DNA of 35,700 bases from Candidatus Azambacteria bacterium RIFCSPHIGHO2_02_FULL_52_12 (GTDB lineage: Bacteria > Patescibacteriota > Minisyncoccia > GWC2-36-17 > WO2-46-25): contig MEYP01000001.1 in assembly GCA_001775835.1 (NCBI GenBank), positions 7,732 to 43,431 of the forward strand, written 5' to 3'. The notes beneath the pieces were generated by a model. That model saw only the letters and a program-made list of their open reading frames with translations, ran no database searches and had not been told where the DNA came from. Position 1 is the stretch's first letter. Each line of letters opens with the position of its first letter. Shown in pieces: positions 430-7,462 of the stretch. Both the position numbers and the translations under genes were made by a program.

Positions 430-510
430 TAATAATAAATAAGTTCATAAAGTTAAAAGTTTATAAAGTGGGGAATTCCACTTTTGACTTTATGAACTTT
501 ATAAACTGTA
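430..510. repeat. Imperfect palindrome of 7-nt words, family A (ATAAAGT/TAAAAGT)
   Basis: Left arm carries ATAAAGT-type words (443-469), centre is GGGGAATTCC (470-479), right arm carries the complementary ACTTT-type words (480-507). Fills the pilB-REC spacer. Confidence 0.7.
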
Positions 511-517
511 TAACTCT

Positions 518-895
518 ATGAAAAGCATTCTCATTGTGGAAGACGATTCTTTTTTGTCCGACATGTATCAGACAAAGTTTTTGTCGGCGGGCTACGATGT
601 GCGCGTCGCAGACGACGGCGAACAGTGCCTCCAAGCGCTGAAAGACGGCTTCAGGCCCGATGTCATGCTGCTTGACGTCGTGATGCCGCGCATGGACGGC
701 ATCGAATTGCTCGCCGCCGTCAAAAAAGACGATAATTTCAAAAATATCCCGGTGATCCTCCTGACCAATCTGGGACAGGAGAGCGACATCAAGCGCGGCA
801 TGGAGATGGGCGCCGTGGATTATCTGGTGAAGGCGCACTTCACGCCTTCGGAAGTCGCGCGGAAAGTGGAAGAAATAATGAAGACGAGGGGTTAG
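518..895 (+). CDS. Receiver-only response regulator (CheY/PilH-like)
   Basis: 125 aa with N-terminal acidic pair VEDD, phospho-acceptor context MLLDVVMP, LLTN and LVKAH (conserved T and K). No output domain. Confidence 0.85.
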   Translation: MKSILIVEDDSFLSDMYQTKFLSAGYDVRVADDGEQCLQALKDGFRPDVMLLDVVMPRMDGIELLAAVKKDDNFKNIPVILLTNLGQESDIKRGMEMGAVDYLVKAHFTPSEVARKVEEIMKTRG

Positions 896-956
896 CTTCA
901 TTAGCTTTCAGCTTTTAGAGCGACCCCCTAAAAGCTAACGAAGCTGAAAGCTAAAA
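891..956. repeat. Imperfect palindrome of 7-nt words, family B (AGCTTCA/AGCTTTC/AGCTTTT)
   Basis: AGCTTTTAG (910-918) pairs with CTAAAAGCT (928-936). Flanking AGCTTnn words face their complements GAAGCT/GAAAGCT. Starts at the REC stop codon. Confidence 0.7.
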
Positions 957-965
957 CCTGATTTT

Positions 966-2033
966 ATGGATATCAAACAAGAATTGGAAGAATTGCTGGG
1001 CATGGTGCTTGCGCGGGGAGCGTCCGACCTTCATATTTCCGTCGGCCGCAGACCGACCCTGCGCATCGATGGCGTGCTCGTTCAGGTCGAATCGAAAGAC
1101 ATCATCGACGAAAACTACGCGAAACAGTTCACGATGGAGATCTTGCGGGATGAGCAGCGCGAGCGTTTTCTACAGGACAAGGAGCTCGATTTTTCATATG
1201 GTTTCGCCGACATCGCCCGGTTCCGCGTGAACGTGTTCATGCAGAAAGGGAATTTCGCCGCGGCGATGCGCCTGATCCCCACGGAAATCCGCACGCTGGA
1301 TGACCTGAACCATCCGCAGGTGATCCACGCCATGATCCGGGGCTCGCAGGGATTTTTTCTCGTGGTCGGCCCTTCAGGGCAGGGCAAATCAACGACGCTT
1401 GCCGCCATGGTCGACGAGATCAACCACAACCGCGCGTGCCACATCATCACCATCGAAGACCCCATCGAATACCTGTTCAAGAACGACAAGGCGATCGTGG
1501 ACCAGCGGGAAGTGGGCCAGGATACCAAGAATTTCAACGTCGCTCTGCGCTCGGTCTTGCGCCAGGACCCCGACGTCATCATGGTGGGCGAAATGCGCGA
1601 TCCGGAAACGATATCGGCGGCCATCACGGCGGCTGAAACGGGGCACTTGGTGTTCTCCACGCTCCACACCAACAACGCGTCGCAGACCATAGACCGCATC
1701 ATCGACTCGTTCCCTCCCTCCCAGCAGAATCAGATCCGCACCCAGCTGGCGAGCACCCTGCTTGGCGTGCTGTCCAAGCGCCTCATTCCCCGCGTGAACG
1801 GCGGGCGCGTCGCCGCGTTCGAATTGCTCATCGCCAACGCGGCGGTGAAAAATCTCATCCGGGAGAATAAAACGCACCAGATAGACCTGGTCATCGAGAC
1901 GTCCGCCGAAGAAGGCATGATATCGCTCAATCGTTCGCTCGCGCATCTGGTCAAAAGCGGCGACATCACCTACGAAGACGCGATCATCCATTCGCTCAAC
2001 CCGTCCGAATTGAAGATATTGGCGTCACGATAA
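966..2033 (+). CDS. pilT: Twitching-motility (retraction) ATPase PilT
   Basis: 355 aa. Walker A GPSGQGKST, Walker B/Asp box DPDVIMVGEMRD, His box TGHLVFSTLHTN. Size is typical of PilT rather than PilB. Confidence 0.9.
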   Translation: MDIKQELEELLGMVLARGASDLHISVGRRPTLRIDGVLVQVESKDIIDENYAKQFTMEILRDEQRERFLQDKELDFSYGFADIARFRVNVFMQKGNFAAAMRLIPTEIRTLDDLNHPQVIHAMIRGSQGFFLVVGPSGQGKSTTLAAMVDEINHNRACHIITIEDPIEYLFKNDKAIVDQREVGQDTKNFNVALRSVLRQDPDVIMVGEMRDPETISAAITAAETGHLVFSTLHTNNASQTIDRIIDSFPPSQQNQIRTQLASTLLGVLSKRLIPRVNGGRVAAFELLIANAAVKNLIRENKTHQIDLVIETSAEEGMISLNRSLAHLVKSGDITYEDAIIHSLNPSELKILASR

Positions 2034-2113
2034 GAAGCTAGAATCTAGAAAATAGAATCTAGAATCAAGAACTGCATGAAACCCATACGCGCGCATTCTA
2101 CTTTCTAGCTTCT
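2034..2113. repeat. Imperfect palindrome of 7-nt words, family C (TAGAATC)
   Basis: Tandem TAGAATC/TAGAAAA words at 2039-2066. GAAGCTAGAA (2034-2043) is perfectly complementary to TTCTAGCTTC (2103-2112). Confidence 0.7.
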
Positions 2114-2118
2114 ACCCC

Positions 2119-5699: not shown

Positions 5700-6200
5700 A
5701 AAGGTTTTACGCTGATTGAGATTCTCATATCCATCGCCATCATCGGCACCCTGTCTTCTGTGGTTATGGTCAATATAGGGTTCGGGAACCGCCAGCAAAA
5801 TCTTCTCCGCGCCGCCCAACTGCTCGCGCTTGACATCCGCCGGGCGCAGAACCTTTCGCTGGCGCCCACCGATTCCCCAACGTGTGTTTACGGGTTGAAC
5901 ATAAACTCCGCAACCGGCTATTTTGTATATTTTGACAGAGATCAAACTTGCGCCAATGGACATCGATATGTCGCGGGCAGTCCCTCGATTGCCATCATTG
6001 ACAATCCCGGCATCACCCTTAAAAACAGCATTACCATAGATGCTCCCTTCAATCAGGACATCGCGTTTGAAGCGCCCGAGCCGATCACCTATATCAATGG
6101 AGCAAAAGACAGCGCGGGATTTACCATAACTCTGCGCTCTCCCGATAACACAACCAAGACGGTGACGGTTAACCGATTCGGGCAAGTGGAAATAAACTAG
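5616..6200 (+). CDS. Minor pilin/pseudopilin (GspH/FimT-like) with a long leader
   Basis: ...FHEKG|FTLIEILISIAIIGTLSSVV, followed by AAQLLALDIRRAQ as in GspH/FimT. Leader is 30 aa from ATG 5616, 23 aa from ATG 5637, 13 aa from TTG 5667. Confidence 0.75.
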   Translation: MKHETCNMKHKIRALRRLFYASCFTFHEKGFTLIEILISIAIIGTLSSVVMVNIGFGNRQQNLLRAAQLLALDIRRAQNLSLAPTDSPTCVYGLNINSATGYFVYFDRDQTCANGHRYVAGSPSIAIIDNPGITLKNSITIDAPFNQDIAFEAPEPITYINGAKDSAGFTITLRSPDNTTKTVTVNRFGQVEIN

Positions 6201-6299
6201 CTTTCAGCTTCATTAGCTTTTAGCTTATAGGAATGCAAAACAAAATACAAAAATCAAGAATTTCTCTAAAAGCTAATGAAGCTAACAAGCTGAAAGCTA
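6198..6299. repeat. Imperfect palindrome of 7-nt words, family B (second copy)
   Basis: TAGCTTTCAGCTTCATTAGCTTTTAG (6198-6223) versus the complement of 6266-6299, which is identical except for one extra 8-nt word AGCTTGTT. ATG 6233 lies in the loop. Confidence 0.8.
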
Positions 6300-6757
6300 G
6301 TAAGGGTTTCACCCTCTTGGAGAGCCTGATCGCCATCGCCGTCTTCACCGTCGGCATTTCAACGGCCATGACGGTCATCTCCACGTCGCTCTCCGTCGGC
6401 ACGCGCACCAGAGACAAGATCGTCGCGTCGTATCTTGCGCAGGAAGGCATCGAAGTGGTGCGGAGCATCCGCGACAACAACTGGATTGACGGAGATGCCT
6501 GGGACGCGGGCATTGCAAGCGGATGCGTCCAATGGGACAGTGCGGACGTTGATACAGGATGCTCCGCCGGTTCCGGTTTGATTTTTTATCCGTTAGCCAC
6601 GCCGCCTGCGTATAGGGCAATCGCGGGCACAACCAAATTTTCGCGCAGCATTACCGTGCAATCCATATCGGCGGATCAGATACAGGTTACCTCGGCTGTC
6701 AATTGCGGGCTCAACTGCAGCGTGTCGCTATCGGAATACTTATATAATTGGAAGTAA
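6233..6757 (+). CDS. Minor pilin (PilV/GspI-like)
   Basis: ...KASKG|FTLLESLIAIAVFTVGIS, then YLAQEGIEVVRS as in PilV/GspI. 25-aa leader. Confidence 0.75.
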   Translation: MQNKIQKSRISLKANEANKLKASKGFTLLESLIAIAVFTVGISTAMTVISTSLSVGTRTRDKIVASYLAQEGIEVVRSIRDNNWIDGDAWDAGIASGCVQWDSADVDTGCSAGSGLIFYPLATPPAYRAIAGTTKFSRSITVQSISADQIQVTSAVNCGLNCSVSLSEYLYNWK

Positions 6758-6759
6758 GA

Positions 6760-6862
6760 ATCATGAAACACGCAACATGAAACCTGAAACATATCATCAA
6801 AAACCTGAAGCAAAAAAGAAGCAACCCTTGTTTCATGTTTCATGTTTCATGTTTCATGAAAG
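6760..6862. repeat. Imperfect palindrome, family D
   Basis: ATCATGAAACACGCAACATGAAACCTGAAAC ... four tandem TGTTTCA words (6829-6856). About 90 percent identical by eye to 7357-7462. Confidence 0.8.
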
Positions 6863-7355
6863 AGGCTATTCCCTCATCGAGCTCTTGGTCGCCATCGGCA
6901 TCTTTGCCACGGTGGTCGCCATCATGTCGGGCATGTTCATGACGTCCCTGCGGGGTCAGAAGAAGGCGGTTACCGTGCAGAACGTCGCGGATAACATACG
7001 GTACGCTATGGAAATCATGAGCAAGGAGATACGCATGGGAAGCAATTTTAATCCGATCGGCGCGACCGATCTGCAATTTAAATCCAACATGCCTAATCGC
7101 AATGGCGCGAACGTTGAATTCAGCTTGCAGGGCGGACGGATCATGTTCGATGATGACACTGGCGCTCTGCCCGCCGCGGACTCCATCACTTCGGCAAACG
7201 TGGCGGTCACCGCCTTGAATTTTTCCTTGTATCCGACGACCGGCACGCAAAAGAGAGTTCTGATAAGCATACAGGCGGCGTCCGCGGGAACGGCAAGCGA
7301 CGCGGCAACATCGATTAACGTGCAGACCACCGTTGCGCCGCGTATCATCCAATGA
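6777..7355 (+). CDS. Minor pilin (PilW/GspJ-like); alternative start ATG 6849
   Basis: ...FHERG|YSLIELLVAIGIFATVV, then NIRYAMEIMSKEIR. ATG 6849 would give a canonical 6-aa leader MFHERG. Confidence 0.75.
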   Translation: MKPETYHQKPEAKKKQPLFHVSCFMFHERGYSLIELLVAIGIFATVVAIMSGMFMTSLRGQKKAVTVQNVADNIRYAMEIMSKEIRMGSNFNPIGATDLQFKSNMPNRNGANVEFSLQGGRIMFDDDTGALPAADSITSANVAVTALNFSLYPTTGTQKRVLISIQAASAGTASDAATSINVQTTVAPRIIQ

Positions 7356-7356
7356 A

Positions 7357-7462
7357 ATCATGAAACACGCAACATGAAACCTGAAACATACCATCAAAAA
7401 CCTCAAGCAAAAAAGAAACGACCCCTGTTTCATGCTTCATGTTTCACGTTTCATGAGAAAGG
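7357..7462. repeat. Imperfect palindrome, family D (direct repeat of 6760-6862)
   Basis: Same word order as 6760-6862 with about 10 substitutions. Overlaps the first 30 codons of the ORF at 7374. Confidence 0.8.

Follow-up and report, generated by a model that had tools for sequence, protein, structure and literature searches.

Why are the gene junctions of a bacterial pilus operon filled with imperfect palindromes made of 7-nt words? The question is raised by 35,700 nucleotides (the window) of DNA from the groundwater organism Candidatus Azambacteria bacterium RIFCSPHIGHO2_02_FULL_52_12, a stretch that is part of a 941-kb metagenomic scaffold and in which a reading made from the letters alone (the sequence-only reading) had placed such elements at nearly every junction of the operon. 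Our answer, to which we give a probability of roughly 55%, is that they form a clade-wide, fast-turnover, non-autonomous palindromic repeat family at the DNA level, built from words of 7–9 nt and combining features of short tandemly repeated repetitive (STRR) sequences, of REPINs (inverted pairs of repetitive extragenic palindromes, REPs) and of miniature inverted-repeat transposable elements (MITEs). Pfam scans of the window gave the C-terminal end of PilB (1–423), a CheY-like receiver (RR, 518–895), PilT (966–2033), PilC (2119–3324), a 173-aa hypothetical protein (hyp173, 3391–3912), the major pilin (4104–4654, leader MNTQLKKG/FTLIE, the slash marking the end of the leader), the prepilin peptidase PilD (4833–5603) and four minor pilins, mp1 to mp4 (5616–7886); downstream follow LigA, GatC, GatA, three tRNAs, PheS, GyrB and housekeeping genes. 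Window position 1 is position 7883 of locus L036, and the 7.9 kb 5' of it encode a 1126-aa protein, PilM, a PilN-like protein, PilO, a 116-aa protein (hyp116) and the remainder of PilB. In NCBI the minor-pilin homologues of two relatives are labelled Candidatus Azambacteria and the records of two other relatives Candidatus Saccharibacteria; under either label the host is a Candidate Phyla Radiation bacterium. In total approximately 54 kb of the source genome (window and flanks) were read, of which the array census covered 43.6 kb, and seven relatives were compared (L001, L002, L017/L018/L032, L044, L045, L046 and L047), giving eight genomes with the source. L036 to L040 are five assemblies of the source population, and L017, L018, L019 and L021 are four of another population.

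It is clear that the palindromes exist. An inverted repeat finder recovered seven of them (Table 1), Tandem Repeats Finder recovered period-7 arrays in their arms, and two spot checks agreed to the letter: GAAGCTAGAA at 2034–2043 is exactly complementary to TTCTAGCTTC at 2103–2112, and 6198–6223 equals the reverse complement of 6266–6299 except for one additional GTTAGCTT. When RNA folding of each element was compared with 200 dinucleotide shuffles, seven of the eight palindromes that had been claimed folded far better than the shuffles (z between −4.5 and −8.0, with no shuffle equally good), but the eighth, at 3326–3390, is a one-armed word array with a z of −0.35. The solo arms proposed at 3920–3953 and 9994–10023 are both one-armed arrays as claimed, and three further elements were found 5' of the window, between PilM and PilN (z −4.7), PilN and PilO (z −2.5), and PilO and hyp116 (z −4.0). 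The elements measure 65–140 nt and their arms 18–31 nt, with 73–100% complementarity, and the predicted stems of 18–38 bp are AT-rich and broken by internal loops. It had also been said that the elements contain no open reading frame (ORF) of their own, which is true, but four of them overlap the 5' ends of the minor-pilin ORFs and are read through as pilin leaders, with the right arm translated. An Rfam scan of the window returned three tRNAs only and matched no element, which speaks against a known RNA family; the earlier remark that they were not recognised as a named family also appears correct for the literature searched.

The distribution of the elements is far from random. The census found 19 arrays of a 5-mer core at 7–9 nt spacing where shuffled sequences gave 0.42, and 14 of the 19 are located in pilus junctions. 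In the source genome significant word palindromes occupy 10 of 16 junctions of the pilus block and 1 of 35 others (Fisher p=6e-6), and the only copy outside the block in the DNA read is a family B element at the rpsF-ssb junction, approximately 8 kb past the end of the window.

The words fall into at least six families, A (GTCAAAA / ATAAAGT), B (AGCTTTC), C (CTAGAAT), D (CATGAAAC), E (TTAGAAATT) and F (GAATCAT / GAATTAC), at least four of which are present in the window and more in the relatives; the ~54 kb of source genome hold at least five copies of B, five of D, two of A and two of C. Arm-to-arm BLAST within the genome showed families A, B, C and D to be real, and A, B and D also recur across species at different junctions. 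These multi-word arm matches reach 92–100% over 20–39 nt and join the five B copies here with three in L001, the D copies of the window with L018, and the family A arm of the PilB-RR element with the PilT-PilC element of L017. Within a genome the arms of different copies are nearly identical, but their loops are unrelated except in recent duplicates, as between mp3 and mp4 in the window (93% over 101 nt), mp1 and mp2 in L018 (92% over 111 nt) and a pair in L002 (92% over 64 nt). Only multi-word matches were used in these comparisons, because arbitrary heptamer cores are common in viral contigs: control scans for four-unit heptamer arrays gave 61 loci for AGCTT, 116 for GACTT and 14 for ACGTT, so that a single shared word is no evidence of homology, and the use of shared single words as such was given up. 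In the IMG/VR viral contigs themselves (L054–L244) direct arrays of at least four heptamer units are frequent, with a GC content of 27–66% in the AGCTT-core set examined; several AGCTT-core arrays lie just 5' of TTGACA-type promoters, and a few are opposed arrays, for example in L097 and L114. Heptanucleotide units are, according to work cited in PMC4679880, the most abundant long simple repeats in prokaryotes, with an origin by polymerase slippage proposed.

Comparison with the relatives showed that the elements come and go. The order hyp-PilM-N-O-hyp-PilB-RR-PilT-PilC-hyp-pilin-PilD-mp1-4-LigA-GatC-GatA is kept in all seven relatives, and word palindromes are found in the junctions of all except L045, with different families at the same junction. 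L002 and L017/L018/L032 are 89–90% identical in coding DNA and 97% identical in PilB and PilC protein, yet no junction element aligns between them: the PilC-hyp173 junction measures 1 nt in L002 but 159 nt in L017 (not covered in L032), the PilB-RR junction 32 nt in L002 and 181 nt in both L017 and L032, and the PilT-PilC junction 61, 131 and 14 nt in L002, L017 and L032, respectively. The last case is a clean presence/absence difference, since L017 has the palindrome (2389–2519) and the near-identical L032 has only GTTAAAAGTCAAAA (5589–5602); identity between the two falls from 99.6% to 94.5% exactly at this junction, which suggests a recombination breakpoint. In L045, which the PilB and PilC tree places as the sister of L044 inside the palindrome-bearing group, the junctions mostly overlap (ATGA) or measure 2–27 nt, the longer spacers (56–79 nt) are without word arrays, and the pilin leaders are short; 1-nt or overlapping junctions are likewise found in L002 and L044. 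L047 is at the other extreme and is heavily populated, including the GatC-GatA, GatA-hyp195 and mp4-LigA junctions; outside the pilus genes, junctions in L046 and L047 hold elements of families B, C, D and E. The empty operon of L045, the non-aligning elements and the copies outside the pilus block together show that the elements are dispensable, quickly gained and lost, and not intrinsically specific for pilus genes.

The left stem base of the elements lies 0–6 nt past the stop codon or includes it, and the start codon follows 5–19 nt past the right arm for the RR, PilT, PilC, PilN-like and PilO genes, but the starts of the minor pilins lie within the elements: mp1, mp3 and mp4 have their first in-frame ATG in the left arm (MKHET / MKPET), and mp2 has it in the loop. 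Loop and right arm are then read as a long basic leader ending in FHE(K/R)G or KLKASKG, directly before the mature N-terminus of FTLIE type. No other in-frame ATG, GTG or TTG exists for mp2, from which translation of its right arm follows; in mp1 and mp4 the sole in-frame ATG lies 5' of the right-arm array, and mp1 also has an in-frame TTG. A search with mp1 returned 46 homologues, approximately two dozen of which have N-termini that are translated family D (..LFHVSCFMFHE[KR]G) or B (..KAxSYKLKASxG) words; a few others resemble what further 7-nt words would encode, and another subset has short ordinary leaders (MVSHxLLKQKxDG). The B-type elements of mp2 in the window and of mp1 in L046 share nucleotides through loop and ATG and are read in different frames, so conservation is at the level of DNA or RNA and not of the peptide. 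We infer that the prepilin leader is a repeat-tolerant place because PilD removes it.

These observations are the basis for the preferred explanation, in which the elements are dispersed repeats that settle where they are tolerated, and the second of two earlier suggestions, a non-autonomous repeat family growing by word slippage, is borne out by the BLAST families, by presence and absence in close relatives and by a polymorphic unit in ligA (see below). What we propose on copying, on the reason for the enrichment in the pilus block and on any effect on mRNA is as follows. Each arm is a short tandem array of 7–9-nt words, and arrays change in 7-nt steps; they would arise and grow by replication slippage or by copying with a 7-nt offset; the inverted arm would arise by hairpin or template-switch copying, and copies may reach other sites by recombination, gene conversion or some trans-acting enzyme. 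In a genome of ~1 Mb they would persist only where ~30–150 extra bases can be tolerated, that is between co-directional genes, in the PilD-cleaved prepilin leader and in flexible protein linkers, and between genes they would replace stop/start junctions that formerly overlapped. The elements would be co-transcribed, with stems of 20–35 bp reaching from the stop codon to the next start codon or containing it, and probably alter mRNA stability, RNase III sensitivity and translational coupling as a side effect, not as the reason for their existence.

Several observations weigh against this explanation. No transposase was found nearby, as the sequence-only reading had stated, and no RAYT-like gene (REP-associated tyrosine transposase) either, among the Pfam matches recorded for the ~54 kb of source genome and ~70 kb of L044–L047; no convincing target-site duplication was seen when filled sites in L017 were compared with empty sites in L002 and L032, so that mobility is deduced from distribution and not from mechanism. 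A TA flank fits three of the five family B copies, but here the TA belongs to the word itself. The junction palindromes are identical within L036–L040 and within L017, L018, L019 and L021 (five and four assemblies at 99.6–100% identity) and are thus not hypermutable. All five B elements begin exactly at the TAG stop of the upstream gene (p ~0.001) in a genome where 10 of 40 genes end in TAG, and the orthologues without a B element mostly end in TAA or TGA. Start codons are often found in A-rich loops or at the 3' base of the stem, a geometry that suits translational coupling. Finally, the concentration in the pilus block, a block that holds such elements in six of the seven relatives examined, also fits a selected function.

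The elements need not have been imported at all. They may instead have been made on the spot by copying in a 7-nt register, a process that could leave sequence length unchanged: the nascent strand would transiently shift its pairing by one word in either direction, so that ~30 nt are overwritten and become a perfect array, and hairpin-templated synthesis would then mirror this array to the other side. We regard this as unlikely. In ligA and gatA the arrays stand in place of segments that are just as long in L044 and L045, which simple slippage by ±7 nt does not explain, and in L002 the codon position of the source ligA array is occupied by repeats of another word (ACGAATC x4.4; 15733–15763). 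Production in place would cover both the length-neutral arrays and the different words at one ligA codon in two species, as well as B arrays that start from a TAG stop and D arrays that match the conserved FHEKG codons of the prepilins. One slippage event was seen, in ligA: over 10.2 kb, L040, a 99.9% identical sample of the source population, differs by a single indel, a 7-nt unit missing from the ligA array (~11265–11306), and the gene is split into ORFs of 565 aa and 134 aa (HhH/BRCT), the GTG start of the latter following at once. In L047, minor-pilin leaders are encoded by the GTCAAAA array that the source genome has in ligA.

Selected operon punctuation at the RNA level, which was the first of the earlier suggestions ("REP/BIME-like", BIME being bacterial interspersed mosaic element), is in our view also improbable. 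Its formal part fails, since the elements lack the GTAG or CGTC tag of REPs, and the function itself is neither supported nor excluded. According to this model the hairpins are RNase III or stabiliser sites, or coupling devices, that set the ratios of the pilus proteins from one transcript; a ribosome terminating at the 5' stem base would melt that base and expose the next start at the 3' base or in the loop. In its favour, stems of 20–35 bp begin 0–6 nt past the stop codon and finish 5–19 nt short of the following start codon or on it, hairpins recur at orthologous junctions despite replacement of their sequence, the enrichment in the pilus block is accounted for, and the hairpins of STRR type between hupS and hupL of cyanobacteria have been suggested to act in transcript stabilisation or in the coupling of translation (PMC2670836). 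The predicted stems also reach the ~20 bp or more of double-stranded RNA expected for RNase III or stabiliser sites. Nor do the palindromes look like terminators, since no U tract lies next to the stems: neither the GC-rich stem nor the directly adjoining U tract of an intrinsic terminator is present, and no word palindrome was called in a consensus terminator scan, so that a terminator reading was rejected. The conventional terminator assigned earlier to the pilin-PilD spacer is an ordinary GC hairpin (z −3.8), but its T tract is weak and interrupted, and the consensus scan did not list it.

Against punctuation stands first the dispensability of the elements, with none in L045 and near-empty junctions in L002 opposite the long L017 elements, together with the existence of degenerate and one-armed copies. 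In addition, the arms carry no mark of pairing as RNA. A left arm pairs equally well with the right arms of other copies, with a mean of −28.1 kcal/mol for own partners and −27.9 kcal/mol off the diagonal in family D, where the rank of the own right arm as partner is scattered. No excess of G·U pairs was found on the transcribed strand (21 vs 36 here, p=0.06; 53 vs 68 with the elements of the relatives, p=0.20); if anything the minus strand folds better, and G·U asymmetry was dropped as evidence of RNA selection. Interchangeable arms without G·U bias mean that there is no signature of selection on particular RNA pairings. The search for compensatory changes in related genomes, which the sequence-only reading had proposed as a check, likewise gave nothing specific to an element: the paralogous elements 6755–6865 and 7353–7462 have identical left arms, with all arm differences confined to the right arm, PilC scans of metagenome and genome contigs returned no relative near enough for site-by-site covariation, and exact-protein look-ups returned the same population only. 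The lack of Shine-Dalgarno motifs at the junctions was also considered, and rejected, as a sign of translational coupling, since such a motif is present in only ~8 of 40 genes of the source genome (window and L036), so that its absence is genome-wide and not specific to palindrome-bearing junctions. It appears as if the organism starts translation mostly without Shine-Dalgarno sequences.

It is quite doubtful that the arrays are contingency loci, where gain or loss of 7-nt units alters stem length or the frame of a prepilin leader and thereby switches or tunes pilus components by phase variation. Perfect arrays exist, for example (TGTTTCA)x4.3 within the mp3 leader, the targets are surface-structure genes, and since the ATG of mp1 and mp4 lies 5' of the right-arm array, gained or lost units would move what follows out of frame with this ATG; the ligA polymorphism is a natural example of unit loss, and the RNase III-processed (ATCTTTC)n hairpin 5' of hmw1A in Haemophilus influenzae is a precedent (PMC12721329). 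However, most arms are imperfect arrays, which slip poorly, not one junction palindrome differs in copy number among the five and four assemblies, and the single array with unit-number variation sits in a housekeeping gene. Least probable of all are functional sites at the DNA level, such as attC-like boundaries for swapping pilus modules or uptake and protein-binding signals. In their favour, the L017/L032 breakpoint coincides with presence or absence of a palindrome, strand asymmetry is lacking, and leader-plus-palindrome modules precede different minor pilins from one species to another. However, all eight genomes have the same gene order, no integrase was found among the Pfam matches, and the arms hold no RYYYAAC or GTTRRRY core sites, three points that also led us to reject integron attC; six word families argue against a single recognition protein, and the breakpoint is the only one seen.

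Among described systems the hairpins between hupS and hupL are the nearest to the repeat family preferred here. They are formed by 7-bp repeats of the STRR type in filamentous cyanobacteria, and their function is unknown (PMC2670836). In both cases tandem 7-bp units lie in non-coding spacers and form hairpins between co-transcribed genes, with several word families per genome. The host, in contrast, is not a filamentous cyanobacterium but a member of another phylum, the words appear to differ from those described, and here inverted arms are regularly formed by pairs of arrays that together take up the entire spacer from stop to start; the arrays are also translated as prepilin leaders and found in frame in essential genes. 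To our knowledge, none of the word families equals the STRR consensus heptamer.

REPs are imperfect palindromes of 20–40 bp with an unpaired GTAG or CGTC tag at one end, which defines them, and some copies are found inside replication and repair genes (PMC3733652). In the ~54 kb read, the present elements resemble REPs, BIMEs and REPINs in that they appear as small, dispersed, non-autonomous extragenic palindromes, often inverted pairs folding into larger hairpins, and mostly located between co-directional genes and after coding regions. Their arm ends, however, are NTAGCTT, TCATGAAAC, GAAGCTAG and AGTTCATAAAG, with GTAG occurring only once and by way of a stop codon; the arms are AT-rich tandem word arrays instead of single GC-rich palindromic units of 20–40 bp, and no RAYT gene accompanies them among the Pfam matches in the DNA read. 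No paper linking Patescibacteria with REP or MITE elements was found in the literature searched. Likeness to MITEs, including the Rickettsia palindromic elements, lies in the terminal inverted repeats, the small size (<250 bp), the lack of coding capacity, the presence/absence polymorphism in close relatives and the in-frame occurrence in protein genes, and the clade holds a larger relative of classic appearance in L044 (5401–5590); unlike MITEs, the elements here show no demonstrable target-site duplication, their loops are unrelated, their arms have an internal 7-nt periodicity, and the copies in coding regions are one-armed arrays that leave protein length unchanged. The L044 element measures 190 nt and has ~33-bp perfect terminal inverted repeats around a GC-rich structured interior; an element of another species, at a different junction (L002 13890–14062), shares its termini (GAATTACGAAA).

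Two further systems resemble the elements in part. In the 5' untranslated region of hmw of H. influenzae the heptamer (ATCTTTC)n makes up one side of a hairpin that RNase III processes and by which an adhesin is tuned (PMC12721329), so that there too a heptamer array is the arm of a long hairpin 5' of a surface-structure gene and stem length follows the number of units. The hmw hairpin is transcribed, as the elements here presumably are, but it consists of one long perfect array with high-frequency variation opposite a G-rich non-repeat arm, whereas here both arms are short imperfect arrays without length variation at the junctions. TAACTGA direct repeats are found 5' of start codons in Beggiatoaceae and cyanobacteria (PMC4679880); like the present arrays they lie a few nucleotides before the starts of genes without Shine-Dalgarno motifs, some overlapping ORF ends or lying inside ORFs, but they use only one word, which is inverted in one of 170 cases and otherwise direct, and form no hairpins.

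Table 1 Word elements in the window, with the result of the inverted repeat finder and the z-score of RNA folding (interval folded in brackets where it differs from the position); RR, receiver; hyp173, 173-aa hypothetical protein; mp, minor pilin; a slash marks the end of the leader.
Position (strand)	Site	Element and words	Inverted repeat	Stem	z	Remarks
424–517 (+)	PilB-RR spacer	Family A palindrome; GTTCATAAA, GTTAAAA, GTTTATAAA around GGGGAATTCC centre	442–507	441–499 (main)	−5.9	Arm 96% identical over 25 nt to L017 PilT-PilC element (BLAST)
893–965 (+)	RR-PilT spacer	Family B palindrome; AGCTTCATT, AGCTTTC, AGCTTTT	894–945	901–954	−5.2	RR stop TAG belongs to first word; matches four other B copies here and three in L001
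2031–2121 (+)	PilT-PilC spacer	Family C palindrome; CTAGAAT	2033–2113	2033–2113	−4.8	Left arm 97% complementary over 30 nt to solo arm 9994–10023
3325–3390 (+)	PilC-hyp173 spacer	Family A left-hand array; ATAAAGT, CAAAAGT			−0.35	Degenerate right arm; ~9-nt period
3920–3953 (+)	Just past hyp173 stop, 5' of the major pilin's own upstream region	Solo family D array; GTTTCAT type			+0.18	92% over 37 nt to D1 arm
5616–5697 (+)	PilD-mp1	Family D palindrome; CATGAAAC / GTTTCATG	5617–5697		−4.5 (5601–5705)	Overlaps mp1 ORF; leader MKHET...CFTFHEKG/FTLIE
6196–6301 (+)	mp1-mp2	Family B palindrome	6196–6301		−8.0 (6196–6305)	mp1 stop TAG in left arm, mp2 ATG (6233) in loop; right arm translated as ...LKANEANKLKASKG/FTLLE
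6758–6859 (+)	mp2-mp3	Family D palindrome; right arm perfect (TGTTTCA)x4.3	6751–6859		−6.0 (6755–6865)	Leader MKPET...MFHERG/YSLIE; 91–93% identical to 7356–7456 copy, loop included
7356–7456 (+)	mp3-mp4	Family D palindrome	7356–7456		−4.9 (7353–7462)	Leader MKPET...CFTFHEKG/IVVYLAL
9560–9591 (+)	ligA, HhH domain linker	In-frame perfect array (AAGTCAA)x4.6; family A word				
9994–10023 (+)	Over ligA stop and ligA-gatC spacer	Solo family C arm			−1.85	
11047–11079 (+)	gatA	In-frame perfect array (AAATTCG)x4.7				Replaces equal-length segment
17949–17969 (+)	gyrB, C-terminal insertion	In-frame three-unit array; AAGTCAA type				

Some other features of the locus deserve mention. At the end of pilB, just 5' of the family A hairpin, a promoter-like site (405–433, TTTACA-17-TATAAT, 11 of 12 matches) would, judged by its position, start transcription at approximately the 5' base of that hairpin. 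Three non-pilus spacers, 18939–19164, 19927–20144 and 20568–20699, fold far better than shuffles (z −6.3, −5.9 and −7.5, respectively) and have neither 7-nt periodicity nor an Rfam match; the last of them, between rplK and tmk, has 18-nt arms at 20570–20587 and 20676–20693. In L002, the runs of N by which the public record is masked (~7838–7937, 10757–10855 and ~16128–16227) lie in or beside the RR-PilT junction, the major-pilin region between hyp173 and PilD, and the ligA-gatC junction. The window further encodes a VirB2/TrbC-like pilin in a gene overlapping the end of gyrB (18279–18938) and large surface proteins with fn3, cohesin and dockerin domains (29955–35632), possibly parts of a machinery for attachment at the cell surface. 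Two tandem paralogous genes (14601–15089 and 15175–15684) have N-termini that are alike (..IAYSFAL.E.EPNPC..) and no Pfam match for either, and a third small unannotated gene (15688–16089) adjoins them.

Candidate Phyla Radiation genomes are regarded as extremely streamlined, and still a genome of ~1 Mb here tolerates a dynamic palindromic repeat family. The overlapping, translationally coupled genes of the best-conserved surface-organelle operon would have been turned into cistrons separated by hairpins, and repeat DNA has been recruited as coding sequence, with loop and right arm serving, in dozens of species, as a prepilin leader that is cleaved off. The 7-nt arrays in the essential genes ligA, gatA and gyrB are fragile sites, as seen from the ligA array that slipped and split its gene in one natural sample. 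For annotation it follows that the starts of minor pilins are mis-set at these elements by gene callers and assemblers, and that heptamer arrays as such are no basis for reading homology. If production in place were true, a mutational process would be writing palindromes and new leader peptides into a minimal genome. Filled and empty junctions in close relatives, together with the wholly clean operon of L045, constitute a natural experiment on intercistronic hairpins and operon expression.

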